Origin: an uncultured virus (IMG/VR IMGVR_UViG_3300022752_006411)
Taxonomy: Duplodnaviria; Heunggongvirae; Uroviricota; Caudoviricetes
Length of the DNA: 64,000 nt
Direction: 5' to 3' (one strand)
Virus record (IMG/VR): IMGVR_UViG_3300022752_006411
This document shows, piece after piece, positions 4,724 to 47,329 of this stretch. Under the pieces are notes generated by a model that was not told the origin of the DNA, made no database searches, and saw only the letters and a program-made list of their open reading frames with translations. The position numbers and the translations under genes are program-made. The first letter of the stretch is position 1; each line of letters opens with the position of its first letter.

Positions 4724-5311
4724 TCACAAGAATTTTAGACACATAACGATAAATTGCAACATTACATCTTTGTCTTCGCTGGCTTTTGCTTCAACATAAT
4801 GATGCTTATTTCCTGTTATTGTTCTTAATCTACATTTCCATTGGTCATCATAAACATCTAAAGTTAGATCGCCCTCTACGCTAAAATGTTTAGAAAAATC
4901 AGAATAAATTAATTTTACGCTGTCTTCTTCGATCCATTCTGGCATCTTATCATAATCAAACCAAATTTTAATTACAAATTTATTTTTTGTAGGCTTTTCG
5001 TCTATAAAGGATTTGTAATCTAAGCCCGAAATTGTGCAGAGGAAAGACTCAAATGATTTTGATTTCTTAAGAAATTCAGGATTTTCACTAATCATTTTAG
5101 CAACGCATTGAACGTAGGAAGGCAATAAATTTAATTCTTCTGCTACGCTTTTATATGTTTGTTTATTAATTATTGCCGATGCAATTTTTGTGGTTAATTC
5201 TGTGGGGTCTTGTAATACTTTGTTAAAATGATCTTTATGTTTCTTGATAGTATCCGACAAGGCGGGAACAGTCAGATTTAGGCTTTTTTGAATTTTGATG
5301 ATGTCGTTCAT
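4724..5311 (-). CDS. hypothetical protein, possible HTH
   Basis: 195-aa ORF; TYKSVAEELNLLPSYV is HTH-like. Confidence 0.6.
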   Translation of the reverse strand: MNDIIKIQKSLNLTVPALSDTIKKHKDHFNKVLQDPTELTTKIASAIINKQTYKSVAEELNLLPSYVQCVAKMISENPEFLKKSKSFESFLCTISGLDYKSFIDEKPTKNKFVIKIWFDYDKMPEWIEEDSVKLIYSDFSKHFSVEGDLTLDVYDDQWKCRLRTITGNKHHYVEAKASEDKDVMLQFIVMCLKFL

Positions 5312-6228
5312 TTTATATTGTTAATGTATATTCTTTTTAGATCTATGTTTTTAACCTTACTATTACCTAAAGCGACCTCGGCCAGCACTTGATTATGATA
5401 TATTTCTGGAAGTCTAACTCTAAATTTGATACAATACTCTAATGATTTTTTCTTACCATTAAGAATAGCAGATTCGGCTTCTGCCCATCTTCCTCTTATT
5501 ACATTTTCAATATAATCATGCGAAGCGAATATAGAAGTTTTAATAAGATCTTCTGCTTCTAAAAATCTACCTTTGATGACCTTTTTTGCATATTCTAAAG
5601 AAGAGCCAATGTCTTTTTTAATAACGTCTTCTGCTTCTAAAAATCTACCTTTGATAACGTCTTTTGCATATTGGTATGCTATATGTGCATTTTTTGCAAT
5701 ATTAGGTTCTGCTTCTGAAAATCTATTTCTAAGAATGTCTTTTGCGTACAGGTAAGAAAACCTTTGATTTTTTGCAATTACATCTTCTGCTTCTGGCCAC
5801 CTACCTTTAATAACATCTCTGGCGTAGTAATAAGCATATTCTGGATTTTGAATAATTGTAGACTCTGCTTCCTGCCATCTGCCTTGCATTGGGAAGACGG
5901 CATAGCGGTAGGCATATTCTGCTTTCTGAGCGATGCAGGGTTCGGCCAATCTAAATCTTTCGCGCAGCACATTGACTGCGTACAAAACAGAATACTCTAC
6001 GCTTTCGCTTATATTGGGTTCGGCAAGTTTAAATCTAGACCCAGTATTTAGAGCATAGAGATATGAATATTCAACGTCATCCTTGATAAATTCCTCTGCT
6101 TCCAGAAACTTGCCAACTTTTTTTGAATATTCAAATGAAATTTCTGGATTTCTCTTAAAAATTTCTATAGCGTCAGACCATGAAATTTCGCCTTCGGACG
6201 CTTTTTCGTATGCTTGTTTAGGCGTCAC
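5308..6228 (-). CDS. KGRWPEAE-type ~24-aa tandem-repeat protein
   Basis: About 10 YAxxVIKGR(W/F)xEAE repeats; cap LPEIYHN. Confidence 0.85.
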   Translation of the reverse strand: MTPKQAYEKASEGEISWSDAIEIFKRNPEISFEYSKKVGKFLEAEEFIKDDVEYSYLYALNTGSRFKLAEPNISESVEYSVLYAVNVLRERFRLAEPCIAQKAEYAYRYAVFPMQGRWQEAESTIIQNPEYAYYYARDVIKGRWPEAEDVIAKNQRFSYLYAKDILRNRFSEAEPNIAKNAHIAYQYAKDVIKGRFLEAEDVIKKDIGSSLEYAKKVIKGRFLEAEDLIKTSIFASHDYIENVIRGRWAEAESAILNGKKKSLEYCIKFRVRLPEIYHNQVLAEVALGNSKVKNIDLKRIYINNIK

Positions 6229-16062: not shown

Positions 16063-16471
16063 TCAAAGATTTTATAATAAGCCCTTTTTGCATTATTTCT
16101 GTAAAGTCTTGATCCAGAAAGAAAATTGGGATATGAAGTCTACACAAAGTATATTTATAAAATATGAATTTTGAAACTTTTCCTTTGTGTTCTATTGGTA
16201 AGGACAATTCAACAGGAGCGAATTTGTTTTTGTCTCTACCCAAAGCAGAGGCGGAAATTGTAATGTAATCAATTCTGCCGATTGACTTTTTTATTGGATT
16301 TTCTACAAAAATTCTTTTATAAGTCTTTTCCTCATCAAAATTCAAATCGCAATTAAAAAAATCTACAATTTTTTCTGCGGTTTTTCTTAATTTATTACTT
16401 ATATTTTTCTTCTTTTCAAAAGTTTCGTAAATCTCTTTTATTGAATCCAATGTATCAGACATAATAATCAA
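16055..16471 (-). CDS. hypothetical protein
   Basis: 138-aa ORF coupled to the upstream gene. Confidence 0.6.
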   Translation of the reverse strand: MIIMSDTLDSIKEIYETFEKKKNISNKLRKTAEKIVDFFNCDLNFDEEKTYKRIFVENPIKKSIGRIDYITISASALGRDKNKFAPVELSLPIEHKGKVSKFIFYKYTLCRLHIPIFFLDQDFTEIMQKGLIIKSLSA

Positions 16472-17370
16472 ACGCTTTCTTCATTGGTACAATAAAGTGC
16501 CAATTTTTCTTTTTCTACCTTATACTTTTTTGCTTTGAAATACTTTTTGACAAATTTATCATCTTTTCTTGTCATTGCCAAAACAATCATCTTGTTGTGA
16601 AGAATTTCTGGTAGTTTTCCGCCAACAATGTATTTTGCATAATTGAAAAGACATTCTGCATTTTCTTTTTGAAAAAGAATTTCTTCAAACTCTTTCCATC
16701 GACCTTTTAGTATTTTTTTACAATATTCAATTTTACTATTTACTTTCTTTGTCTCAAGTAATTTTTTCTCACCTTCAATCCATCTTCCCCCAACCGATTT
16801 TTCTGCATAAGCGATTATTTTATCTTCACCTGCCCCCAACAAGATATCTTCAACTTCTTGCCATCTGTTTTTTCTTGCTCCTACACAATATTCAAAAATA
16901 ATATGAGAATTGCGAGAGCCTTTAATAAGTTCTTCCGCTTCCGGCCAAGCACCTCTTATTACTTCTGAAGCATAACTTACAATTGTTGAGATTGAATTTG
17001 AAGAAGAAGAATTCAAAATAGAATCTTCTGCCTCTGGCCATCTGTTTTTAATTACATCTCTGGCGTAGACGTATGCGAACTTTGGAGTCTTAGCAATCGT
17101 ATTTTCGCCGCTCTCAAAACGATAGCCTAGTACGTCCCTAGAATAGAGATAAGACTTTTCAGCGTCTTTGGATATTGCTTCTTCACCAAGTTCAAATCTA
17201 CCTGCTGTCTTGGCGTATCCAAAAGATAAATCGCAGCTTTTAGAAATAAAATCTTTTTCTATCCTATCTTTGTTGGCAACCATGAAGTTATTCCAATCTT
17301 CACGGGCAATATAGTAGGAAGATTGCATAAAATTACAAAACTTGGCGTTAGTGTTGTTTTCGTTGCTCAT
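16468..17370 (-). CDS. KGRWPEAE-type repeat protein
   Basis: About 8 repeats; cap LPEILHNKMI. Confidence 0.85.
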   Translation of the reverse strand: MSNENNTNAKFCNFMQSSYYIAREDWNNFMVANKDRIEKDFISKSCDLSFGYAKTAGRFELGEEAISKDAEKSYLYSRDVLGYRFESGENTIAKTPKFAYVYARDVIKNRWPEAEDSILNSSSSNSISTIVSYASEVIRGAWPEAEELIKGSRNSHIIFEYCVGARKNRWQEVEDILLGAGEDKIIAYAEKSVGGRWIEGEKKLLETKKVNSKIEYCKKILKGRWKEFEEILFQKENAECLFNYAKYIVGGKLPEILHNKMIVLAMTRKDDKFVKKYFKAKKYKVEKEKLALYCTNEESV

Positions 17371-17432
17371 AAATTGCCTTTTAGAGTTTTATTGGACTAT
17401 GTGAAAAATAGACCGAATAAGAATTGTTATTT

Positions 17433-17708
17433 TCAATTGTTTTCAAACTCAGGCAAATTATTGAATAAATTTATGTCGCAGTCAATAAAAGCAGTATTGC
17501 CACATTTGTCAACAACAATTTGACAACGAACGTGCGGACTAACCGATCTTCCTGCTGCGTGTTCGTGTAGCATAGAAAAGACGATGGGAAATTTAGTCTC
17601 AGGTGGTAGAGAATAAATTCTATCTGTCAACTGCCTGTTGTAGTTTCGGATAACAGCAGTCTCATTAGCCAAAATCAAATAATCCATTGTAAAATACTTC
17701 ATTATCAA
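17433..17708 (-). CDS. hypothetical protein
   Basis: 91-aa ORF. Confidence 0.6.
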   Translation of the reverse strand: MIMKYFTMDYLILANETAVIRNYNRQLTDRIYSLPPETKFPIVFSMLHEHAAGRSVSPHVRCQIVVDKCGNTAFIDCDINLFNNLPEFENN

Positions 17709-18484
17709 CTCCTTATAGCGATAGATTCCAATAGTCTTTTCAGTTCTTTTGCTGAAAAATTACTTACTAGCCTCAACTTTTCCGCATCTTCTTTTTCTTT
17801 TATAAGACAAAAATAAGAATGGCATAATATTTTTGATTCCTGACTTGAACTCATAAACAATGAAATTATTTTATTTTTCCACTTATCGGGCAGTTCTGTG
17901 TTGATTCTTGCCATATAAATTGCGTACATGACGCACAAATGATCGTCTTCAAAAATCGAATCTTCTCCAAGTAAAAATCTTCCTTCGATGCAATACTGCG
18001 CATAATGAAAAGATAATGTTGGGTCTTTTGCGACTGATTTTTCTCCAAGTTCAAATCTTTCACCAAGCAGCAAAGAGTATTCATAAGAACTTTTGGCGCA
18101 ATTAGAGATTGCCTTTTCTCCTTTTTCAAATCTTGATCTTACTATATCCTTTGCGTAATACAGGCTGCAATTTGGACAAGTTGCTATAGCATCTTCTCCC
18201 ATTTCAAATTCATCACACAAAACTTCCTTTGCATATAACAATGAATAATTGGGGTGTTTGGCTATCGCTTTCTCTCCAAGTTCAAACCTTTTACCCAGAA
18301 TATTTTTTGCATACAGATAAGATTGAAAAGCACTTTTGCTAATTGCTTTTTCGCCCAACTCAAATCTTTCTTGTATATCTTGAGCATAAAGTCTAGAGTA
18401 TCTTGAATTTTTCGAAATAATTTCCACTTCCTCTTCGGAAAGGTCTAATTCTTTTGACTTTTCGTAAATTTCTTTTGCGTTCAT
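17705..18484 (-). CDS. RFELGEKAI-type ~24-aa repeat protein
   Basis: About 7 YAxxILxxRFELGEKAI repeats; cap LPDKWKN. Confidence 0.85.
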   Translation of the reverse strand: MNAKEIYEKSKELDLSEEEVEIISKNSRYSRLYAQDIQERFELGEKAISKSAFQSYLYAKNILGKRFELGEKAIAKHPNYSLLYAKEVLCDEFEMGEDAIATCPNCSLYYAKDIVRSRFEKGEKAISNCAKSSYEYSLLLGERFELGEKSVAKDPTLSFHYAQYCIEGRFLLGEDSIFEDDHLCVMYAIYMARINTELPDKWKNKIISLFMSSSQESKILCHSYFCLIKEKEDAEKLRLVSNFSAKELKRLLESIAIRS

Positions 18485-18649
18485 TGATTGATTCCTTGTT
18501 GGTATCAATCTTAATGTCCAAAACCATTTTTGTTTAGAATAAATTACATTGCCATAATACCTATTGTTTAATAAAAATGAACTGCTTGTTGATCACTTCC
18601 TTTAGTCGGATCATCTAAACGGCGTGTAAAATCAGACCGTCATGCATTT

Positions 18650-27932: not shown

Positions 27933-28957
27933 CTATTTGTTTTTTAATTTTTTGATCTCAAAATATTTATTAATATCCAACAATTTTGTTTTTGAAAATT
28001 TGCCAAAAGCACAATCGCATAGCAACTTGTTGCTTTCTTCTTCACTAAGTATGTCGATTTTAAATCTGTTGCAATATTTTATTAAATAATGAGAATCCTT
28101 CAATAAAAATTCTGCTTCTGGCCATCTTTTTTTCATTATTTTAGAAGAATACAAATAAACAAATTTTGCAATTCCTTTTGTATTGGGTGCTTTGCTAATA
28201 ACTAAATTTTCGAGGTCTTCACATCTGCCTATCATTTTTGAATAGGCATAAGCGTAAACTAAATTATTTAAAATTGCAGGTTCGCCTTCCTGCCATCTGA
28301 TTTTCAAGATATCTCTGGCGTATAAAAAAGAACTTTTGGCACTTTTTTTATTGTTTTCTCACCTTCTGGCCATCGTTCTTTAATTATATTTTGAACATAC
28401 AATAATGTATAAACAACGCTTTTTAGAATAAGCGGCTCTGCTTCTGGCCATCTGTTTTTTATACAACGAGAAGTGTAATTCCACGCTACGCGAGCGTCTG
28501 ATTTTAAGATTGCTTGTTCCGCTTCTGGCCATGTCGAAATAGCAACTTCGTTTTTATAATCGCATATAAAGTGTATGTTTGCTAATGGATTTGAAAGCAG
28601 ATTATATTCGCCATTCCTCCATCTTCCTTTTATGACATATTTGGCATAATTAATTATTAATGATATGTCTTTTAAAATATATTCTTCTGCTTCCGGCCAT
28701 CTGCCTTTTATTACATCTATAGCATATTCTACTGATTTTTTTGATTTTTTAATATTTTCTTCTGCTTCTAACCATCTGCCTTGCACAAACTCTTTTGCAT
28801 AATCAACAGCATAATTGCTATCAACTAATACTTTTTCTGCGTCTGGATATCTTTTGCCTTTAGGCAATTTCTTCAACTCTGCCCAAACATACCAAGGCTG
28901 ATCCGCAGGCAATTGAGTAGGTGCGGGAGTCGCAAAATTTCCAGAGTAAGAAACCAT
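27933..28957 (-). CDS. KGRWPEAE-type repeat protein split by a 1-nt frameshift at an A7 run
   Basis: ORFs 28304-28957 and 27933-28307 join as IKKSAKSSFLYARDILKIRWQEGE if one A is added at 28343-28349. Confidence 0.75.
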
Positions 28958-31150: not shown

Positions 31151-32188
31151 TCAACAACCAACCGGCTTTCTTCTTTTAATTTCTTTTTTATATTTTTTAT
31201 ACCCTAAATATTTTTTCAAACTTTCATTTTTGGGGTCGTTAATCCCATTCATAACTACCATATTATGCATTTCTTCTGGAAGTCTTGCTTTGATAATATT
31301 TTTAGCGTACTGATATGCATAAAAAATATTCTTTGCAATAAAAAGTTCTGCTTCTGGCCATCTTCCTTTTATAATTTCTTTAGCATATTGATATGCAAAT
31401 GCTGGTTCTTTTGAAATTAATTCTTCTGCTTCTAGCCATCTGCCTTGTATTACTTTTTTTGCATATTCAAAAGAAATCTTGGGATTACTCACAATAATTT
31501 TTTCTGCTTCCGGCCATCTGCCTTTAATTATTTCTTTCGCGTAAGCAATAACAGGAAAATCCGTATTGTAGTATTCTGGATCGTAATTGATAATATTTTC
31601 TTCTGCTTCTGGCCACCTTCCTTTTATATAATCTTTGGCATATTCAAATGCGTTTCTTGGATTTTTCATAATAATATGCTCTGCTTCTGGCCATCTTGAC
31701 TTCTTAAAGTCTTGAACATACCTAAAAGCAACTTCTTCTGGCGATTCGTAGTTGTTATTGCCAGGATTTTTTTCTAAACACAAAACAATATTATTTTCTA
31801 TTCCTTCACTTGAAATTTTCTTGTTTTTCAAAAACTCTAAATACGAATGTATTTTGCTGTATGAGTTTAGAAAATAAGACTCTCCTTCAACCCACCTATT
31901 TTTGATAATATTTTTGTAGTATTCACTTGCCTCAAAGCTCTTTGCGATTTCAATCTCTGCTTCCGGCCATCTGCCTTTAATGACCTCAAGGCAATAATTG
32001 GCGGCACATGATGGATCTTTAATAATAACATGTTCTGCTTCCGGCCACCTTCCTTTAATAAACTTTTCTGCATATATCAGACAAGTTTTAGGATCGTTTT
32101 GCTTTATAATTTCGCTTTCTATAAAGTCATTTCTTCCTTTAGGAATTATGGTAATTTCATATGAGTAGTGGTGAAGTTTGATTTGCAT
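31151..32188 (-). CDS. KGRWPEAE-type repeat protein
   Basis: About 9 repeats; cap LPEEMHNMVV; start at ATG 32188. Confidence 0.85.
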   Translation of the reverse strand: MQIKLHHYSYEITIIPKGRNDFIESEIIKQNDPKTCLIYAEKFIKGRWPEAEHVIIKDPSCAANYCLEVIKGRWPEAEIEIAKSFEASEYYKNIIKNRWVEGESYFLNSYSKIHSYLEFLKNKKISSEGIENNIVLCLEKNPGNNNYESPEEVAFRYVQDFKKSRWPEAEHIIMKNPRNAFEYAKDYIKGRWPEAEENIINYDPEYYNTDFPVIAYAKEIIKGRWPEAEKIIVSNPKISFEYAKKVIQGRWLEAEELISKEPAFAYQYAKEIIKGRWPEAELFIAKNIFYAYQYAKNIIKARLPEEMHNMVVMNGINDPKNESLKKYLGYKKYKKEIKRRKPVGC

Positions 32189-32189
32189 T

Positions 32190-32753
32190 TTATTTCGCCT
32201 TGCTATTTCCAAAAACAACACACCAATAAACTTCCCCAATAGAAGGAGAAGAAATTCCAATTCCTATCTCGTCATACTGAGGGGTCAGTATCGCTTTTCT
32301 ATGACCATCACTTCTCATCCATCCATCAACAATTATTTTTGTATTGTACGCTAATTTTGGAGGAGCCTTGCCAGCAGCAACTATTTCACTTCCCAAATTA
32401 AAATTTGAATTTATTTCAAATCTCTTTTGCTCTGGATAGACTTTCATTTCAAACGCTTTTTCAAAATCACAATATCCAGAATTTACAATTCTGTGTAGCG
32501 GGTGATGATTACATATTTTATATTGCTCTAAATCTTTTGGCTGCTCTCCTTCAAGGTGAGTCATAATATGATTTTTAGCCATCCAATCAGAATGGTATTG
32601 AGCGGCTTTTGCTAAATTTTTATTTAGACTAAGCTTTTGTAAATTGTTTGTTGATCTAATATTATTTAGTCTAAAAAATACTTCCGAATAAAGTTCTTTT
32701 CCAAAAGAATTTTGCGAAACAAAAAGTAATATTACCAATAAAAATTTATACAT
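32190..32753 (-). CDS. secreted CAP (SCP) domain protein
   Basis: Signal-like N-terminus; LAKAAQYHSDWMA; WMRSDGHRKAIL; EIGIG. Confidence 0.85.
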   Translation of the reverse strand: MYKFLLVILLFVSQNSFGKELYSEVFFRLNNIRSTNNLQKLSLNKNLAKAAQYHSDWMAKNHIMTHLEGEQPKDLEQYKICNHHPLHRIVNSGYCDFEKAFEMKVYPEQKRFEINSNFNLGSEIVAAGKAPPKLAYNTKIIVDGWMRSDGHRKAILTPQYDEIGIGISSPSIGEVYWCVVFGNSKAK

Positions 32754-36802: not shown

Positions 36803-36979
36803 TTACTTCCAACGATTTGACAAAGCAAAAAAAGTAGGAGCCCACAATCCTACAAATATTCCAAATCGCTCACCGTGTCCAACATCCGGGTCTTTACTCA
36901 AAAACCAAATTGCTATGCTGGCAGCAATGCTAACAAAACCAGCATAAAAACAAACTTTGCCAATAACTTTCTCATCCAT
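36803..36979 (-). CDS. small two-TM membrane protein (58 aa, not in ORF track)
   Basis: MDEKVIGKVCFYAGFVSIAASIAIWF...ERFGIFVGLWAPTF; own promoter TTGACA-16-TACAAT at 37020-37047. Confidence 0.75.
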   Translation of the reverse strand: MDEKVIGKVCFYAGFVSIAASIAIWFLSKDPDVGHGERFGIFVGLWAPTFFALSNRWK

Positions 36980-37048
36980 AAATAAATCCTAAAAGAAGGT
37001 AAACTGAACACTGAACTCAATTGTACTAAATTTCACAACAATGTCAAT

Positions 37049-38053
37049 TTAATTAAACCAATCTGGTCTTAATTTGCGTATTTTATTATTAAATTTTGGA
37101 CAATAACAACTGCTGTCTTTTCTTGTGTAATTTGACAACGCTCTGCCTATCTTTGTTTTTTGCGATGGCTTTTTATCTCCTTTTGTAGCAATATTAAATA
37201 ATTCTTTCTTTTTCATATTGGCAAATTCAGATCGACTAATAAACCAATTCGGAGCAAGTTTTCTAATTTGTTTATCAAATTTCGGACAATATGAAGCAGA
37301 ACCTTTATTTGTATACGCACATAATCTATAGCCTAATTTTGATTTTTTTTGATTGGGTCTATCTGCTCCTGCTTTTGCCAATTTTATCAAAGATTCTTTG
37401 TTGCCATCAGAACTTTGAGTCGGAGACACAAACCAATTCGGAGCAAGTTTTCTAATTTGCTTATCAAAAACAGGATAGTAAGAAGCATTTGATTTAGATG
37501 TGTAATTAAATAAAGCTCGGCCTAATTTTGTTTTCCAACTAGGCTTTTCTTTTTTATTTTTAGCCAATTCTAATAATTCTTTTTTTTGCTGCCCCACAGG
37601 ATCAAACCAACTAGGGGCAATTTTTCTTATTTGCTTGTTGAATTTTGGACAGTAGGTTCCTGAGCCTTTGCATGTGTAATTGGTCAATGCTTGACCCAAC
37701 TTTCTTTCAATTGAATTTTTTGATTCTTTACTTGGTCTTAATTCTTTTTTTATAGCCATAGCAAGTAAAATTTTTTGGTTTGAAATGACTGTATTTTCAA
37801 ACCAACTTGGAGCAAGTTTTCTAATTTGTTTATCAAATTTTGGACAATAACTTCCTGAGCATTTTCTTGTATAATTACATAGGGCATTTCCTAGTTTTCG
37901 CTCCGTCAAATTATTAGACTCTTTATTTGGTCTTGATTCTTTTTTTATAGCCCTATCAATTAATATTTCTTTATTGGCTTCAGCGGTATTTTCTTTGCTG
38001 AAGTTAAATAACTCGCACAAAGATTTATAGTTTGTATTTATATCACTTATCAT
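37049..38053 (-). CDS. RPDWF-repeat protein C (5 repeats of ~62 aa)
   Basis: Starts MISDINTNYKSLCELFNFSK; ATGA overlap with the upstream gene. Confidence 0.85.
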   Translation of the reverse strand: MISDINTNYKSLCELFNFSKENTAEANKEILIDRAIKKESRPNKESNNLTERKLGNALCNYTRKCSGSYCPKFDKQIRKLAPSWFENTVISNQKILLAMAIKKELRPSKESKNSIERKLGQALTNYTCKGSGTYCPKFNKQIRKIAPSWFDPVGQQKKELLELAKNKKEKPSWKTKLGRALFNYTSKSNASYYPVFDKQIRKLAPNWFVSPTQSSDGNKESLIKLAKAGADRPNQKKSKLGYRLCAYTNKGSASYCPKFDKQIRKLAPNWFISRSEFANMKKKELFNIATKGDKKPSQKTKIGRALSNYTRKDSSCYCPKFNNKIRKLRPDWFN

Positions 38054-38481
38054 TTCTTGAACCAATCCGGTCTGAGTTTTTTTATTTGTTCGGTAAAAAC
38101 AGGATCATAAGTTTTATTTTTTTTACTTGTGTAAGTTGTTAAACTTTTTGAAATTTTTAATTTCCAATGTGGTCTATCTTCTCCATTTTTTGCCATTTGT
38201 AATAATAATTTTTTATTTTTATTTGCTTTATCTGACGAGGTTATAAACCAATCTGGTCTGAGTTCTCTTATTTTTTTATCAAAAATAGCATCGTAACAAA
38301 TTTTTGATTTTAATGTATAACTGCTTAAGGCTCTTCCTAATTTTGATTTCCAATGCGGTCTATCTTCTCCATTTTTTGCCATTTGTAATAATAATTTTTT
38401 ATTAATATCAGTAGTAGTTTCTTTGCTAAAATTAAATAGTTTACAAATTGCATCATAATTTGAATCTATTTTACTTATCAT
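38050..38481 (-). CDS. RPDWF-repeat protein B (2 repeats)
   Basis: Starts MISKIDSNYDAICKLFNFSK; ATGA overlap. Confidence 0.85.
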   Translation of the reverse strand: MISKIDSNYDAICKLFNFSKETTTDINKKLLLQMAKNGEDRPHWKSKLGRALSSYTLKSKICYDAIFDKKIRELRPDWFITSSDKANKNKKLLLQMAKNGEDRPHWKLKISKSLTTYTSKKNKTYDPVFTEQIKKLRPDWFKK

Positions 38482-39767
38482 TTTTTGAACCAATCCGGTC
38501 TGAGTTTGCGAATGGTTTTAGAAAATTCAGGATCGTAAGTTCCAGAGTATTTTCCAACATAGTTACACAAGCAACTTCCTAGAGAAGAACTATAAGGTCT
38601 TTTTGCTCCGCTTTTTGCAATTTTTAATAATTCTTTCTTTTTGGCATTGGCAATCTCAGATCGACTAACAAACCAATCCGGCCTAAGTTTTTTTAAAGTC
38701 TTTTTAAATTCACAATTGCTAGGTCTTCTTATGTAGGAATAAAAAAGAATTCCCATTTTTGTTTTTTGATTTGGCCTGCTGGCTCCACTCTTGGCAAGTT
38801 CCAATAGTTTTTCTCTGTTGATTTGAGCCTTAGTTACAAACCAATCTGGCCTTAATCTTTTGATTTCCTTAGTAAAGGAATCATTTAGCATTCTTTTCTT
38901 TGTTGTTCTTTCTCCAAGAAACTTACCCAAATCTGTGTTGTATTTTGGTCTTGGCTTGCCGCTTTTTGCCAATTCTAGCAATTTATTCTTTTTCATATTA
39001 GCCCTTTCGGTCTGAGGAACAAACCAATCTGGCCTTATTTCTCTTATTTTTTTGGCGAACTCAGGATCATAAGAGCCTCTTTGACTTTTGTTTGTATAAG
39101 TTCCTAAAGAAGCCCCTAAAGGATGGCCTCCTTTATTTGGCCTAGACTCTCCATTTTTTGCCATATCCAATAACTTCTCTTTTTTTTGCTGCACTATGTC
39201 GTATTGAGTAACAAACCAATCGGGCCTGATTCTTTTTATATTTTGAGTAAAACCCTTATCGTAGCAATCAGAATTTATGTAGGTGTAACTGTAGAGTTTG
39301 CTTCCAATAGATGTCTTAATATTTGGCTTTTTATCACCCTTTTTTGCAATATCAATTAGTAATTTTTTACTTTCTTCAATAGAAACTTTCATTCCCAAAA
39401 AGTCATACCAACTGCTCCAATCTTTTTTATAAAAAATATCTGGGCAGCGGGGCCAGTTGTGCTTAATATTTTTTTTATATTGTTTCTTTGAAAGAAATTT
39501 AAAGGCCACAACTTGTTTTTTGCAATCTTCAAAAGAAAGAAACTTAGGCTCCTTCTTGCCTAAAAAATCATACCAGCCACTCCAATGTGGCTTATAAAGC
39601 CTATCTGGATCGCTGGGCCAGTTGGGCTTTTTATTTTTTCTATACTCTTTGATGCTTTTGAATTTGTATTTTCTAACTTGTTCTCTACATTCCTTAAAAG
39701 AAAGAAATTTGCCAAATTCAAATAATTTACATAGCGACTTGTAACTTGTTATTATGCTGCTTATCAT
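38478..39767 (-). CDS. RPDWF-repeat protein A (2 integrase-repeat-like units plus 5 RPDWF repeats)
   Basis: Starts MISSIITSYKSLCKLFEFGK; WPxxPDxxYKxxWxxWYDFLG x2. Confidence 0.85.
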   Translation of the reverse strand: MISSIITSYKSLCKLFEFGKFLSFKECREQVRKYKFKSIKEYRKNKKPNWPSDPDRLYKPHWSGWYDFLGKKEPKFLSFEDCKKQVVAFKFLSKKQYKKNIKHNWPRCPDIFYKKDWSSWYDFLGMKVSIEESKKLLIDIAKKGDKKPNIKTSIGSKLYSYTYINSDCYDKGFTQNIKRIRPDWFVTQYDIVQQKKEKLLDMAKNGESRPNKGGHPLGASLGTYTNKSQRGSYDPEFAKKIREIRPDWFVPQTERANMKKNKLLELAKSGKPRPKYNTDLGKFLGERTTKKRMLNDSFTKEIKRLRPDWFVTKAQINREKLLELAKSGASRPNQKTKMGILFYSYIRRPSNCEFKKTLKKLRPDWFVSRSEIANAKKKELLKIAKSGAKRPYSSSLGSCLCNYVGKYSGTYDPEFSKTIRKLRPDWFKK

Positions 39768-39775
39768 TTTAACAC

Positions 39776-41992
39776 CTACGCTGCGTAATCTATTGCAATT
39801 TTATTTGTTATCTTTGAATTTTTTGTAAAGAACGCATACCCAGAAGGAAGCAATTTGTTGAAAAAAGCGACCTTTCTATTTAGTTCAACTAAGGAAATGT
39901 CAAGTCTTTCTGCAACATCCTTTTTACTTGGAGTGCTCGCATTATTTTTCTCAGCAACTTCGTTGTAGCACTTGTGAAAATTTGCAAGATCCCCAACAGT
40001 TTTTCTAATAATTTTTTCGTGGCTTTTATTGTTTTCTTGAATACTAAATCCGACTTCTATAGGTAAAAATTTTCTAATATTATTTGCAATTTCCATTTGC
40101 TGGCTCTTGTTCCAGAATATGTTGCCAACTATTTCTTTGAATTTAGCAAACTCTCTTTTGCCTAAATTGCCGCACCAAAAATTACCTCCAAGTCCATAAT
40201 TTTCAACAAGAATATCAAATCCATTTTTTCTAATTTCAGCAACATCAATATTTTTTTGTCTCAAAGCCTCTGATCTGGCTTTCAACAAGAATATCTTAAG
40301 TCCAGCAATTATATTGTCTTTTTCTGTTAACTTTATTCCCTTGCTGGTTTCTACTTTTACTACGTCTTCAAATTCATAAGAAGTGATAACCGTATTGATG
40401 ATTCTATTTACAGTCTCCTCGTCAAAAGAAGATTCTACGGACAAAGAATCTATCATTTCTTTTTTTATCTTCTCAAAATCATCGCCAAAAACATCGGCAA
40501 GTCTAATTCCTTCTGATTTAGTTTTTTTAGAAGACTTGGATGCAGGTCTTTTGTCAGAAGAACACTTGGGCAGTTCTGGCAGTATAATTGGACACAACAA
40601 GTCATCAATTATCATCAAACTAAGCATGGCATTTACTCTGTCCATTAAAAATTCTCTTTTAGACAGAGAATCTAATAGACCTTTGAATTTTTTAATATAA
40701 TAAATTATACCAACAGTTTCTTTCTGTTCAAATTTTCTAAACAATCTGCCCAAAGTCTGCACTGCCAATGTAGGCGAGCCTAATTCAATAGAAGCGTTAT
40801 GAAGCCTGCTGCAAGGACACCAATCAGTTCCTTCCCTGCCAAGCATACAGGTTATTACAATTCTAATTTTAGAATTGTTTTCTTCGTCGTATCTCTCTTT
40901 TGGTTCTTTAAGTAAGATTGATTTATTTTTATCTTGAGTACTTTCTGGCACTAAGTCCAAGATTGTTTCATCGGGATTCAAACCTTCTTCTTCGACCATT
41001 CTACTCAATTTTCTCATTAATTTTTCCAGCGTTGGGTCTTGATTTTTTCTCCATTTTCCAACAACTGTAGGTACAACAACCAAATGACGCTCTGATCGTA
41101 GTTCTTTTCTTATATTCTCGACAATTTGATGTATGGGATCGTCGTCATATTCTTCAAAATTAATAAATACCTCTTCAATTCCTAAAGTTTCAAAATGCTT
41201 TAAGAATTCAAGTTCGTACCTATCAAACTTATCTAAATACTCACTTTTTACAATAATTCCTTGATCGCCTCTAAAAAATGTGGCTGTTGTCAAACCAACC
41301 CTACTATTGTTCTTGTCGGCCTTATCAATAATTTTGTATAAAACTTCGCCTAACTGGTTGTAGTCTTTAATTACTTCATCTTCTTTGGCATCAATTTCTC
41401 CACCCTTAATATGATGGGCTTCATCAACATAAAAAGCAGTATTCTTTACTGCTAAGTCAAACTTTCCATCCGCAATAATTCTTCTCATTGCAGTATTAAA
41501 TGCTTGGTGTGTGCAAACCACCATGCCTTGAGAGCCGTCTACAACATATTCATCTTCATGCTTGAAATCAGAAAAATTTGCTTTTCTAAGCATGAAGTTT
41601 ATCAACATATCAACTTTACTAGGAGAATTTTCGCAAAAATTATTAGCAGAACATAAGTTCACAGTTCCCAAGTTAGGAACACAAAATTTTCCGCTAATTG
41701 CAAATCCATCGCCAATATGCGATTGAGGAACAATAAAGATTGTTTTTCTAGAATTTTTAATTGTATCGTAAAGAGCCAAGACTATAGAAAGAGTAGTTTT
41801 TCCACTGCCACAAAAAGCTTTTATTAGAAATAAATTAGAATTATAAAGTTTTTCAAAAGCTTTAGTTTGCCAGTATCTTAGAATTCTTTCTGTAACTGGT
41901 CGCTTTGTTCTCTTGAGCTTAACGGACTTTGATTTCTCTGGTCTTTTGCCAAGCCTTCTAGAAGGAAACTTGTAAGATGTGTGACTAAACAT
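39776..41992 (-). CDS. superfamily 2 (DEAH-type, ResIII-like) helicase with C-terminal HTH-like segment
   Basis: LRYWQ, GSGKT, DEAHH, TAT, EGTDW, QTLGRLFR; PSKKDVAERLDIS. Confidence 0.9.
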   Translation of the reverse strand: MFSHTSYKFPSRRLGKRPEKSKSVKLKRTKRPVTERILRYWQTKAFEKLYNSNLFLIKAFCGSGKTTLSIVLALYDTIKNSRKTIFIVPQSHIGDGFAISGKFCVPNLGTVNLCSANNFCENSPSKVDMLINFMLRKANFSDFKHEDEYVVDGSQGMVVCTHQAFNTAMRRIIADGKFDLAVKNTAFYVDEAHHIKGGEIDAKEDEVIKDYNQLGEVLYKIIDKADKNNSRVGLTTATFFRGDQGIIVKSEYLDKFDRYELEFLKHFETLGIEEVFINFEEYDDDPIHQIVENIRKELRSERHLVVVPTVVGKWRKNQDPTLEKLMRKLSRMVEEEGLNPDETILDLVPESTQDKNKSILLKEPKERYDEENNSKIRIVITCMLGREGTDWCPCSRLHNASIELGSPTLAVQTLGRLFRKFEQKETVGIIYYIKKFKGLLDSLSKREFLMDRVNAMLSLMIIDDLLCPIILPELPKCSSDKRPASKSSKKTKSEGIRLADVFGDDFEKIKKEMIDSLSVESSFDEETVNRIINTVITSYEFEDVVKVETSKGIKLTEKDNIIAGLKIFLLKARSEALRQKNIDVAEIRKNGFDILVENYGLGGNFWCGNLGKREFAKFKEIVGNIFWNKSQQMEIANNIRKFLPIEVGFSIQENNKSHEKIIRKTVGDLANFHKCYNEVAEKNNASTPSKKDVAERLDISLVELNRKVAFFNKLLPSGYAFFTKNSKITNKIAIDYAA

Positions 41993-42009
41993 AGAGTTCG
42001 ATTCCCTTC

Positions 42010-42762
42010 TTATAATGATGTTTCTTCAAAATCATCACACCAAATTTCAAAATCAGCAAATAACTTATCTAATTTGTGTTCCGGCGGAAGAAAGCCCTTG
42101 TAGAAGATATAACTCTTCATAAGGGTCTTGGCGGTTTGATATCCATAACTTGGAATTACAATATCAGAATTTTCAATCTCTTTCCAAGACTTTGTTTCTT
42201 TGCTTTTGTTCCAATCTTTGTATTTCGCCGGTATCTCTTTGTACAAAAGGCCTTCCAACAAAACTGTAGTGTCTAAGAACTCTCCAAGTCCCGATCTTGG
42301 ATTTGTTTCCATAACATTACAAATAACTAAAGTATCTTGAACACAAGCGTCCAATGTGTTTTTTAAAGTCTTTAAGGCCGGTAACTTATCTCCAAAATGA
42401 GTCGAATCTAAATAAACCAGTGCGGGATCGAATTGTCTAGTTGATAAAAGAACATTCCAATCTCCATCGTGCCATAAAGCGTTTGGATGATTTTTTTTAT
42501 TGGCCTTAATGTAAGTTTTGCTATTGTCTATTCCAACAAATTGATAGGGACTAAGCAAATCAGCAATAACCATTTGGTTAATTTCGCTACTAGGGCTTTT
42601 ATCTTGAATGTTGGCAAGAGTAAGATATTGTTTATTATCTGGTATCCTCTTGTTTCCAGTTATCAATCTATACAGCCTAATATTCAATTCTCTAGCCATA
42701 AACTTATGGATAGATTCAGAATATTTTGGCTGATGAGATACTGTCATGTTTGCCATGAGCAT
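42010..42762 (-). CDS. divergent SAM-dependent methyltransferase-fold protein
   Basis: YLTLA, FVGID, GDW and LVYLD spaced like class I MTase strands. Confidence 0.5.
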   Translation of the reverse strand: MLMANMTVSHQPKYSESIHKFMARELNIRLYRLITGNKRIPDNKQYLTLANIQDKSPSSEINQMVIADLLSPYQFVGIDNSKTYIKANKKNHPNALWHDGDWNVLLSTRQFDPALVYLDSTHFGDKLPALKTLKNTLDACVQDTLVICNVMETNPRSGLGEFLDTTVLLEGLLYKEIPAKYKDWNKSKETKSWKEIENSDIVIPSYGYQTAKTLMKSYIFYKGFLPPEHKLDKLFADFEIWCDDFEETSL

Positions 42763-42784
42763 CCCTGCTCTTTCTATGGTTTAG

Positions 42785-42973
42785 TCAGTCACTCTTTTTA
42801 CGCTTAGTTGCCGCCGCTCTCACACCGGCAATAACTCTATCCGGCGTAGATCTAATTTCTAAAGCCCTCGTAACGGCATAAGTTTTAAGAGCTCGGGTCG
42901 CATTCGCTTTGTGGGCAGGGGTTTTTGCATTCAAAATTCTGCCTACAACTTCATTCAAAGTATAAATTTTCAT
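42785..42973 (-). CDS. small basic protein at the head of the helicase operon
   Basis: AAGGAG Shine-Dalgarno; MKIYTLNEVVGRIL... Confidence 0.7.
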   Translation of the reverse strand: MKIYTLNEVVGRILNAKTPAHKANATRALKTYAVTRALEIRSTPDRVIAGVRAAATKRKKSD

Positions 42974-43047
42974 GGCTTCTCCTTTTTTTGTTGCCGGTTC
43001 ATCCCACAAAGACTATAGATTCACAACAATAGAATGTAAAGCGTAAT

Positions 43048-43722
43048 TTAATTTTTATTTATTAGTTCTTTTATATTCGCTACAGTCATAGAGTCATCAA
43101 ACATTTCTAACATATTCCTAAATACCACTTCTAACTTTTTAACATAAGTAAAATATTCTTCAACTACGCACTTGGCATCATAAGAATAAGGCTCCAGATC
43201 AGACATCCCAAAAACAATCATTCTGTTGTGAAGTTCTTCTGGAAGTTTTCTATTTATAATTGCTGCGTACTGCATTAAATAAAGGGGCTCTTTTTTAAAT
43301 TCTTCTTCTGCCTCTTCCCATCTTTCTTTGGGCAAAAAGCGCTCCATATATTTTAATGCTATTTTTGGATCTTTTGCAATAAAACCTTCTGCTTCTTTCC
43401 ATCTTGCCCCCAGCACAGATGTGGCATACTTCAAGGCAAAAAAGGGTTCTTGCATAATGTTTGATTCTGCTTCCTCCCACCTTTTTTTAAGAACACTAAT
43501 CGCATAGTCTGTGGCAGCAGAAGCGTTTTGTAAAATCACTTTTTCTGCTTCTGGCCATCTGCTCATTAAGAAGGAGTTCGCGTAAACAAAACAACACTTT
43601 GGATTTTCCAGTATTAGAGCCTCAAGCTCAGGCACTCTTCTTTTCTTTCTAAGTCTTTGAGCCGCCCTCAATGCGGCAATTGGAGTTTTAATTCCTTTTT
43701 CTTTTAGATTATATCTAGCCAT
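43048..43722 (-). CDS. KGRWPEAE-type repeat protein
   Basis: 4-5 repeats; LPEELHNRMI. Confidence 0.85.
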   Translation of the reverse strand: MARYNLKEKGIKTPIAALRAAQRLRKKRRVPELEALILENPKCCFVYANSFLMSRWPEAEKVILQNASAATDYAISVLKKRWEEAESNIMQEPFFALKYATSVLGARWKEAEGFIAKDPKIALKYMERFLPKERWEEAEEEFKKEPLYLMQYAAIINRKLPEELHNRMIVFGMSDLEPYSYDAKCVVEEYFTYVKKLEVVFRNMLEMFDDSMTVANIKELINKN

Positions 43723-43764
43723 ATTAATCCCTTTAAAATCGCATCAGAATTATAATAGACCAAC

Positions 43765-44370
43765 TTAGTTTTGTTTTATAAAACTAAAGTACTTTTTTAC
43801 AAATTTATCATTTGGATTTTCAATTGCAAAAGATAGCATTTTATTATGTAGATTTTCCGGGAGTTTGTCTTTTATCACATTTTGTGCATAATAGAATAAA
43901 AATTCTATATTTTTTGAAATCTCTTTTTCTCCAAGTTCAAATCTTTCTCTTAAAATCATTTCTGCGTATTTATAGGCGTGGTAATAATCTTTTGCAATAC
44001 AAGATTCTGCTTCTGGCCATCTATTTCCTAGAATGTCTCGGGCATAATAGTATGCATATTGCGGATCTTTAGAAATAAGCTTTTCTGCTTCTAAAAATCT
44101 GCCTTTTAGTATCGTCAAGGCGTATCTCAAAGAATATTCGCAATCTTTTGAAATTACATGCTCTGCTTCTGGCCATCTTTCTTTTATGATATTGAGTGCA
44201 TATTCATATGCCCATCTAGAATCAGACAGCACCATTTTCTCGCCAGCGAAAAATCTTTTATTTGTATTTTTTGCATAAGTGTAGCAAGACTCAGGACTCC
44301 TTAGAGCCAATTTCAATGTTTGTTTTTCGATTCCTTCCGAATTTAAAATTGAATTATTTTTTTTATTCAT
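43765..44370 (-). CDS. KGRWPEAE-type repeat protein
   Basis: 5-6 repeats; LPENLHNKML. Confidence 0.85.
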   Translation of the reverse strand: MNKKNNSILNSEGIEKQTLKLALRSPESCYTYAKNTNKRFFAGEKMVLSDSRWAYEYALNIIKERWPEAEHVISKDCEYSLRYALTILKGRFLEAEKLISKDPQYAYYYARDILGNRWPEAESCIAKDYYHAYKYAEMILRERFELGEKEISKNIEFLFYYAQNVIKDKLPENLHNKMLSFAIENPNDKFVKKYFSFIKQN

Positions 44371-45058
44371 TTTTAAAATTCTTGACAATTTCGGTTATTT
44401 TTTTATTTTTACTAAATCTTTTTAGTATGTTGTATACAATTTGATCACACTCCGATAATTCTTCTAATTTTTTATACTCTAAGTATTCCACTTCTACAGT
44501 AAGGCTGTTCGGGCATCCTTCGTATCTCACAATAAATATATCTTCAAATTCTTTGCATAATTTAAAATATTTGGATGCGCTTTTCTGATTTGTTGGATTT
44601 TTAATAGCTTCGGCAATTATCATGTTATGAATTTTTTCTGGAAACTTTCGCTTTGATATGTTTTTTGCGTATAAGTAAGCATAGGCTAAATCTTTTATAA
44701 AAATTATCTCTAGATAATCCGGTATTCTTCCTGTTATTTCTCCGTATTCATAAAGACTTTCTGGGTTGGATATTAATCTTTCTATTTTTTTAGGCAAATC
44801 AATGTCTAAGGCATACAAATGCCCAGCATATCTAACAATAAAATCTTGTTTGATTTCATAAGAAACATCATCGCACTTTACAATGGCACTTTCTACGTTT
44901 TTTGGAAGTCTAGACCCCAATAAAGAAGCGTAATCCAAAGCGGCATCAAAGCTTTTCCCAAAAACTTTTTCGTATTTTTTAGGAAAAGCTTTCATCGCCT
45001 TTGCGTATTTTAAAGCCTCAACAGGATCAGTTGCTATTTTAGGCAATTCTTTAGTCAT
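44363..45058 (-). CDS. divergent repeat/LPExxHN-cap protein
   Basis: DPVEALKYA, RLP units; FPEKIHNMII. Confidence 0.75.
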   Translation of the reverse strand: MTKELPKIATDPVEALKYAKAMKAFPKKYEKVFGKSFDAALDYASLLGSRLPKNVESAIVKCDDVSYEIKQDFIVRYAGHLYALDIDLPKKIERLISNPESLYEYGEITGRIPDYLEIIFIKDLAYAYLYAKNISKRKFPEKIHNMIIAEAIKNPTNQKSASKYFKLCKEFEDIFIVRYEGCPNSLTVEVEYLEYKKLEELSECDQIVYNILKRFSKNKKITEIVKNFKNE

Positions 45059-46600: not shown

Positions 46601-47329
46601 ATGCTAGTCAACTGTGATTGTATTAAATATTTAAAAAAAATCAAAACAAATTCTATAGATTTAATTTTAACAGACCCTCCTTATTTCATAGGCTTTGATG
46701 GAGGAAAAGGATGGGACTCCAAGTGGAAAAATGAAAAAGAATATCTAGATTGGTGTAGAATATGGACTACAGAGTGTTTTAGAGTATTAAAAAATAATAG
46801 AATTTTTGCTGTATTTGGGACACTAAAAACAGATACTTTTCTAAGGTATAAATTAGAAATATTAAATAACATAAATAATTTTTTCAGTCAAAATGAAATT
46901 ATTTGGTCTTATAATTGGGGCGGAAGATCGAAAGAAAATTTCGCAAGAAAACATGAATATATTTGGTGCTATTCTAAGGGAAAAAAGTTCTTATTTAATT
47001 CAGACGAAATAAGAATTGAAAGAAAGCAAAAAATAAACATACGAACAGGAGAAGAATTTGAAAAAGGAACGATTCCAACTTGCGTATGGGAAAAAAATAA
47101 CCACACTTGTAGTAAAGAGTATATAAATTGGCACCCAACACAAAAGCCCCTTTCTATTTTAGAAAGAATTATAAAAGCATATACAAACAAAAATGGAAAG
47201 GTTTTAGACATTTTTAGCGGCTCTGGGTCTACTATGATTGCTTGCAAAAACACGGACAGAGAGTTCTGTGGGTGCGAACTTTCAAAAGAATATTATAAAA
47301 AATCATTGAAAAGACTAGCAGATTACTGA
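46601..47329 (+). CDS. orphan N6-adenine/N4-cytosine DNA methyltransferase (beta class)
   Basis: TDPPY precedes HPTQKP and DIFSGSGST. Confidence 0.92.
   Translation: MLVNCDCIKYLKKIKTNSIDLILTDPPYFIGFDGGKGWDSKWKNEKEYLDWCRIWTTECFRVLKNNRIFAVFGTLKTDTFLRYKLEILNNINNFFSQNEIIWSYNWGGRSKENFARKHEYIWCYSKGKKFLFNSDEIRIERKQKINIRTGEEFEKGTIPTCVWEKNNHTCSKEYINWHPTQKPLSILERIIKAYTNKNGKVLDIFSGSGSTMIACKNTDREFCGCELSKEYYKKSLKRLADY

Follow-up and report, generated by a model that had tools for sequence, protein, structure and literature searches.

SF2 helicases with fused helicase-associated (HA) repeats (PF03457; unit structure PDB 2KTA) couple a motor to tandem small basic three-helix units, and Type I and Type ISP restriction-modification enzymes (HsdR/HsdM/HsdS; LlaBIII and LlaGI) combine an SF2 translocase and a methyltransferase (MTase) fold with exchangeable specificity parts, the HsdS subunits being swappable. 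Here we describe a set of six genes on the minus strand of a 64,000-nucleotide stretch (the window) from an uncultured virus of the Caudoviricetes (IMG/VR record IMGVR_UViG_3300022752_006411), which encode, in this order, a small basic protein, an MTase-fold protein, a DEAH helicase, and three repeat arrays, A, B, and C, that open with a common leader peptide. As in the HA-repeat helicases, an SF2 motor is accompanied by small basic three-helix units, and relatives of the window helicase bear true HA units; in the window, by contrast, the units are separate genes under a common leader, the unnamed unit that prevails in them (the PDWF unit) is weakly HA-like, and the set includes an MTase-fold partner as well as a small basic protein. 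Unlike the restriction enzymes, the module has neither a nuclease nor the amino-methyltransferase motif, and its putative specificity parts are repeat arrays rather than target recognition domains. The phage integrase repeat INT_rpt (PF14882) recurs as two units in A and as four units in an array of the related locus L001, yet no integrase is present here, and the INT_rpt units stand behind the leader that also heads PDWF units, either by themselves or mixed with them. Helicases of Pithovirus, Terrestrivirus, and Klosneuvirus carry C-terminal repeats fused in cis, which are weak structural matches to B. The locus is a real, conserved, and undescribed phage module with a motor-modifier-specificity layout like that of a restriction enzyme, outside that family. 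The arrangement is found again in many large phages.

We propose, with a probability of about 0.6, that the six genes form one nuclease-free targeted DNA motor with a plug-in architecture, in which A, B, and C would replace one another as subunits predicted to read DNA. The common leader would plug each array onto the tail at the helicase C terminus, and the various arrays would so bring the helicase and its MTase-fold partner to different DNA sites. The socket would most likely be the clade-specific helicase tail; the C-terminal helix of the MTase-fold protein or the small basic protein could serve instead or in addition, and the window-type leader probably folds on binding. We lean slightly toward the basic three-helix units reading DNA and owing their specificity to the variable face of helix 2. 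A role in host conflict or in competition with other phages falls somewhat short of even odds, and we place a little less trust still in the suggestion that the helicase translocates on DNA while the MTase-fold enzyme alters a nucleotide at that site, using not amino-methylation but another chemistry, possibly O-methylation. The features of the locus are the following:

42785..42973, minus strand: small basic protein, 62 aa, isoelectric point (pI) 11
42010..42762, minus strand: MTase-fold protein, 250 aa, class I methyltransferase fold
39776..41992, minus strand: SF2 (DEAH, ResIII-like) helicase, 738 aa
39779..40114, minus strand: clade-specific helical tail of the helicase (residues about 627-738), candidate leader socket
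38478..39767, minus strand: array A, 429 aa, with leader, two INT_rpt units, and five PDWF units
39708..39767, minus strand: leader peptide of A
38050..38481, minus strand: array B, 143 aa, with leader and two PDWF units
38422..38481, minus strand: leader peptide of B
37049..38053, minus strand: array C, 334 aa, with leader and five PDWF units
37994..38053, minus strand: leader peptide of C
43012..43040, minus strand: sigma-70-like promoter candidate (10/12) upstream of the first gene
37020..37047, minus strand: sigma-70-like promoter candidate (11/12) immediately past the stop of C

All six open reading frames (ORFs) are intact and lie, on the minus strand, at the place and in the order given in an original prediction made from the sequence. 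It had also described arrays with five, two, and five repeat copies, which we recovered as PDWF units of 56-65 aa, and a common leader of ~20 aa, for which we found 55-70% pairwise amino-acid identity over 20 residues. The ATGA overlaps that it reported are present between A and B and between B and C, while the helicase and A are separated by 8 nt. Its view that the set is nuclease-free held as well: none of the six proteins had a nuclease match of credible score in Pfam, PHROGs, or PADLOC, and a crude scan of the module for nuclease motifs gave loose matches only, inside the INT units and the helicase core. The region contained 21 sigma-70-like sites compared to 23.4 in shuffles, i.e., the level expected by chance, so that it is their position that singles out the promoter candidates at 43040 and 37047; the one behind C likely marks the end of the six-gene unit.

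To follow the module through related genomes, we collected loci with helicase, array, MTase, and small-protein queries and labelled them by profile, and some arrays by eye. A locus scan with single proteins gave no match. After merging duplicates and leaving out a weak 445-aa match (L009), we obtained 33 distinct helicase loci including the window. At least two separate arrays were present in 17 of these, a single array in 3, and a long fused C-terminal extension in 9, the remainder being one locus with an adjoining HA-type ORF (L019), two that were cut by a contig end, and one without arrays (L005). An MTase fold accompanied the helicase in 15 of the 17 multi-array loci (it was not seen in Tunturi_5 and L020/L021), and the window shows the full combination of MTase fold, helicase family, and several separate arrays under one common leader. 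With two or more arrays in 17 of 33 loci, the module proved to be conserved while the number and type of its arrays varied between homologous loci. The arrays themselves largely do not occur independently of the helicase, a possibility that had been raised against the module: the helicase adjoined or was fused in 8 of 13 array loci (in L042 as judged by eye), and the other five comprised one with the C-terminal part of a helicase plus an MTase, two at contig edges, and two isolated leaderless fragments. Natural fusions joined the helicase to a PDWF array (P0053, P0055, and P0056) and the MTase to the helicase (P0307 and P0343). In L026 (3770-9508) and L036 (9666-10892), resolvase-like and TnpB-like genes (IS607 type, by eye) flanked or adjoined an MTase-helicase pair. 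Among the papers that our literature searches listed, none described this module; the main text of a jumbo phage overview (PMC7824862) makes no mention of helicase-associated or HA domains, and the word helicase is absent from the main text on the Tunturi isolates (PMC11924767).

We found the relatives with separate arrays to carry split repeat units: the end of the helicase constitutes the first part of a unit and the start of the array its remainder, and this held in three repeat families. For the unit that we term NGG-type (L020 and L015), the helicase tails cover positions 1-22 and 1-19 and the leaders run from 16 or 19 to 50, and for the PDWF unit (L042) the tail covers positions 3-24 and the leaders run from 25 or 28 to 58. 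In the HA family, an L031 leader corresponds to positions 31-64 of the 64 in Pfam HA (30.2 bits, cut-off 28.4); two-helix leaders match the HA profile at 94.7%, and one-helix leaders map to its final 15 positions. Likewise, gp99 of the cultured phage Tunturi_5 aligns from residue 4 onward, and without a break in order, with the fused helicase P0058, the match taking in the last 240 residues of that protein from position 639 (E 3e-26). On a tree of 143 helicases, of which 26 are fused, the fused or split state changed 11 times, compared to 24 times with shuffled labels (minimum 20), and therefore fission or fusion has recurred. Furthermore, L003, L027, and L031 have their arrays upstream of the helicase, hence contact has to be made in trans; together with the varying frame offsets, this arrangement excludes frameshifting as a general rule.

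The leader of the window is conserved as a peptide and not as DNA, with proportions of synonymous and nonsynonymous differences (pS and pN) of 0.81 and 0.21 in 15 pairwise comparisons among six leaders of the window and L001. Its motif occurs nowhere else in the six frames of the window and in none of its other proteins. A profile built from 32 leaders gave 43 matches in 5062 sequences, all at the start of an ORF; as most of these were training sequences or duplicates, the informative part is the absence of any internal match. The window-type leader heads PDWF and INT_rpt arrays alike (A, L001, and P0216). Upon comparing leaders across loci, we found 41 of 45 to be nearest to another leader of their own locus, one of the four misses being due to a wrongly set start in L027. 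In the structural model of B the leader forms a short helix with a predicted local distance difference test (pLDDT) score of 56-65. Two further leader types were assigned to no repeat unit: a GSLPWDP-type leader on INT-type arrays in L067 (9868-13458), and a long leader in L027 (5259-7902), where the PDWF arrays that carry it lie upstream of the helicase.

On the helicase side, the tails of the relatives sort into length classes, and the 31 long-tail helicases, among them that of the window, constitute one clade on the tree. The helical tail of the window helicase (~110 residues, about 627-738) was confidently modelled and had weak helix-turn-helix-like matches. Window-type leader, long tail, and small basic gene occurred together in 4 of 4 complete loci of this clade and in no other locus. 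The small basic gene was seen solely with long-tail helicases (window, L001, L048, L049, and L052), and, together with the C-terminal extension of the MTase-fold protein, it accompanied the leader in four loci only, namely the window, L001, L048, and L049. This co-occurrence is not independent support, because one clade amounts to one event. A complex model of helicase residues 495-738 with residues 1-30 of B scored 0.02, the mark being 0.32, and counts neither for nor against docking. A region search for fused long-tail forms returned the query itself as sole result, and an Atlas search with the helicase tail gave no usable match, both searches being insensitive. By position, conservation, and analogy with the relatives, docking of the window-type leader is inferred. 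Overall, the idea of interchangeable docking subunits put forward in the original prediction gained partial support, from the conserved module, the natural fusions, a leader conserved regardless of repeat type, and the split units of the relatives.

Sequencing runs from natural populations gave a further view of the arrays. In run X4, comparison with the window gave 0 differences in 4517 bases and 1 in 1729 for contigs over the MTase, the helicase, and the flanks, whereas a contig over array C had 53 in about 735 bases; a contig of run X3 skipped exactly one 186-nt unit of B. For 38 of the X4 differences in C, taken from 40 of 81 rows, 21 of 32 codons were synonymous and 19 of 33 bases equalled the sister repeat. 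The differences in C could stem from exchange between repeats, a second strain, or an assembly error. Contig joints with sides under 30 letters were set aside (other organisms or repeats), and run X7, with its small share, was not used.

Several observations weigh against the plug-in architecture. Among the relatives, L005 has a helicase and an MTase but lacks arrays, no MTase fold lies within 7 kb in Tunturi_5, and L035 bears an orphan array where a relative carries the entire module: L035 (8019-8555) and L039 (4293-8618) have downstream genes in common, L039 with the full module and L035 with a leaderless three-unit array. This contrast suggests loss of the module. The split-unit scheme is less clear on the side of the helicase tails, which match the HA profile weakly (probabilities of 3.5% and 0.35%). 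It is also less clear for the window itself: its leaders scored near 0 bits against HA, a value reached by 41-79 of 100 shuffles (profile probability 0.6%), they had no match to the PDWF profile, and we found no natural fusion that shows what the window leader packs against. As the window leader is thus no HA or PDWF fragment, the split-unit argument reaches its clade by analogy alone. Shared descent within this one clade of 31 may be what keeps tail, leader, and small gene together, and the likeness of leaders within a locus is equally expected from gene duplication. The differences in C are mostly synonymous and therefore give no pointer to diversifying selection. In addition, DNA binding by the HA domains of Streptomyces TtrA and of HA-bearing TniQ is put forward in print as a suggestion (10.1101/2024.11.13.623437).

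Other explanations have to be measured against the same evidence. An unlikely one holds that the leader is a general sorting tag, serving capsid loading, recognition by a protease or chaperone, or oligomerisation of arrays, and that the arrays are free DNA-binding regulators derived from a helicase tail. Such a tag would agree with a window leader that is no fragment of any repeat unit tested, that always sits at the N terminus, like targeting tags such as the T4 internal-protein targeting sequence, and that is encoded alongside a ClpX-like protein (by eye); it agrees poorly with the absence of the leader from every other window protein, with relatives whose leaders exactly complement the helicase end in three repeat families, and with a leader type that tracks the type of the helicase tail. 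We deem it less probable still that the arrays arose by duplication from once-fused helicase tails and are now decaying, the leader being no more than what is left of the copied start. Such decay could explain why fusion is frequent (26 of 143 helicases), why L035, L036, and L046 bear orphan and truncated arrays, and why sister repeats exchange or collapse (19 of the 33 listed variant bases, and the skipped 186-nt unit of B). It is however hard to reconcile with the purifying selection on the leader peptides (pS 0.81, pN 0.21), with leaders kept on unrelated repeat types, with ORFs that are all intact and coupled, and with a break point that is complementary time after time.

A switch of the shufflon or frameshift type, in which programmed frameshifting, readthrough, or rearrangement of the DNA would join the helicase covalently to a single array at any one time, appears highly improbable. 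While fused forms exist and no more than -35 to +8 nt separate the end of the helicase from the first array in 10 of 10 loci checked, the frame offset is 2 in the window and 1 in L001, with a stop before A, the longest DNA in common across the A junction is 10-11 nt with saturated synonymous sites, the arrays of L003, L027, and L031 lie upstream of the helicase, and contigs of four runs held no well-supported joint of the helicase with B or C. A frameshift reading and a DNA-site reading were likewise tested and did not hold. Finally, a restriction-modification-type defence, with its nuclease encoded elsewhere and a nearby canonical DNA methyltransferase providing protection, is about as improbable as decay. 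It would account for the ResIII match in 23 of 23 homologous helicases and for the N6/N4 methyltransferase gene 3.6 kb upstream of the module in the window (46601-47329, plus strand; PF01555, E 1e-51), which has a close homolog 1.2 kb upstream of the module in L001; yet the module is nuclease-free, none of 136 MTase-fold homologs has the (D/N/S)PP(Y/F/W) motif, and the N6/N4 gene lies on the opposite strand with unrelated genes between. The set is not a restriction-modification system, the layout being alike yet without nuclease and without a DPPY motif in the 136 homologs, and the restriction-like or anti-competitor role suggested in the original prediction stays a conjecture.

The helicase has intact SF2 motifs (GSGKT 62, DEAH 190, TAT 236, and QTLGR 412) and matches PF04851 at E 4e-9. 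Its Foldseek matches were SF2 proteins, including LlaBIII (4XQK) and LlaGI (5FFJ), at a template modelling (TM) score of about 0.3, and its likeness to these two enzymes is generic to SF2. A profile of the helicase alignment gave nothing credible against solved structures, with no close solved relative. The MTase-fold protein was assigned to the class I methyltransferase fold by its predicted structure, with Atlas rows at query TM scores of 0.53-0.59 to class I MTase clusters and one row of the COMT type (PF01596; TM 0.53/0.66); the profile of its alignment had no credible match among solved structures. Across the 136 homologs, D79 (96%), D119 (99%), and N149 (94%) are conserved, D79 being the acidic residue that ends strand 2, whereas amino-methyltransferase motif IV, (D/N/S)PP(Y/F/W), was found in none and a glycine-rich GxGxG motif in one, the motif I position reading YWTLCxxQ instead. 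COMT-type O-methyltransferases have a conserved Asp after strand 4 and an Asn after strand 5, and we presume that D119 and N149 are reminiscent of the metal site of the catechol type. The window protein ends in an acidic C-terminal extension of about 28 aa. The family, which comprises 661 representatives at 50% identity, was unnamed in Pfam, PHROGs, and NCBIfam, and tblastn searches of isolated phages found no match to the MTase-fold protein, nor to array C.

The arrays are basic (pI about 10). The two INT_rpt units of A, between its leader and its PDWF units, score 27.8 bits against PF14882 (cut-off 26.5). Of the two repeat families named in the original prediction, PF14882 thus holds for A only, while the PDWF unit stays below Pfam HA, with no PF03457 rows for A, B, or C at E values up to 1. 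In the model of B, the PDWF unit forms three helices, with pLDDT above 90 in the repeats. Its match to the HA profile spans 51 columns at a probability of 3.9% (score 15.5, compared to a maximum of 12.9 in shuffles); a match of 96.6% was discarded, as one of the eight HA rows was a PDWF unit and the probability without that row was 3.9%. Structural comparison of the B model with the HA unit 2KTA (Z 4.1, root-mean-square deviation 5.5, 70 aligned residues) tied with unrelated rows, and the model had no PDB match at E 0.001 in Foldseek and none at Z 5 in VIA-align; a profile of the repeat alignment likewise yielded nothing credible among solved structures. Its best named structural neighbours, in BFVD, were giant-virus helicase repeats (probabilities of 0.97 and 0.80, E 0.08 and 0.47). 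Within the PDWF unit, the exposed helix-2 positions 29, 30, 32, 33, and 36 are among the most variable (3.3-3.8 bits; 120 of 515 units), all but one without an acidic residue among the four commonest letters, and they are rich in R, S, N, C, and K, compared to the K/E-rich surfaces of helices 1 and 3. Such a variable face would fit a recognition helix. Locus L041 (1139-16500) has two helicases with fused PDWF arrays and seven separate arrays, with a radical SAM gene in between; five of the seven start mid-unit with a common MIxSEYLP-type start.

If the proposed plug-in architecture is correct, it would provide a function for HA, INT_rpt, and the unnamed PDWF unit, all three of them orphan repeat families, and a natural, repeatedly evolved case of fragment complementation that gives one enzyme several specificities, and it might offer a new programmable DNA-binding scaffold together with an orthogonal peptide tag. 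In its boldest form, which we consider doubtful, the module would be a programmable DNA-targeting machine of large phages, of a kind so far undescribed, with tandem three-helix units that follow a helix-2 code, like zinc fingers or transcription activator-like effectors, carried by an SF2 motor with a non-canonical methyltransferase and plugged in via a cut repeat unit, the window clade having a new peptide-socket pair and a small adaptor protein. The genes gp100, gp99, and gp98 of Tunturi_5 present the split layout in a cultured phage, which makes docking directly testable, and the MTase-fold family, with its 661 representatives and no family model, may hold an unknown nucleotide chemistry.

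The gene content of the window, read by eye, is that of a large phage, with ligases, a ClpX-like protein, an AAA/vWA pair, and many small repeat proteins. The helicase was found on contigs of up to 210,654 bases, the nearest related locus lies on a 204-kb viral contig, and window DNA was present in lake and freshwater sequencing runs of three studies in addition to the possible source; the virus is likely a freshwater jumbo phage. Across 185,579 prokaryote species, each represented by a single genome, a scan gave 3 loci, and the family is therefore essentially viral. A canonical DNA methyltransferase gene lies 1-4 kb from the module in five loci, namely the window and, read by eye, L001 (4983-5720), L059 (1118-1876), L067 (5392-6360), and L015 (2843-3427). 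Past array C, we noted by eye a 58-aa hydrophobic ORF (36803-36979, minus strand) with its own promoter-like site (11/12), near a strong terminator-like hairpin at 36778-36749. Numerous individual genes made up of a short GRWPEAE-type repeat are strewn over the window (5308-6228, 16468-18508, 28304-28957, 31151-32260, and 43048-44388).

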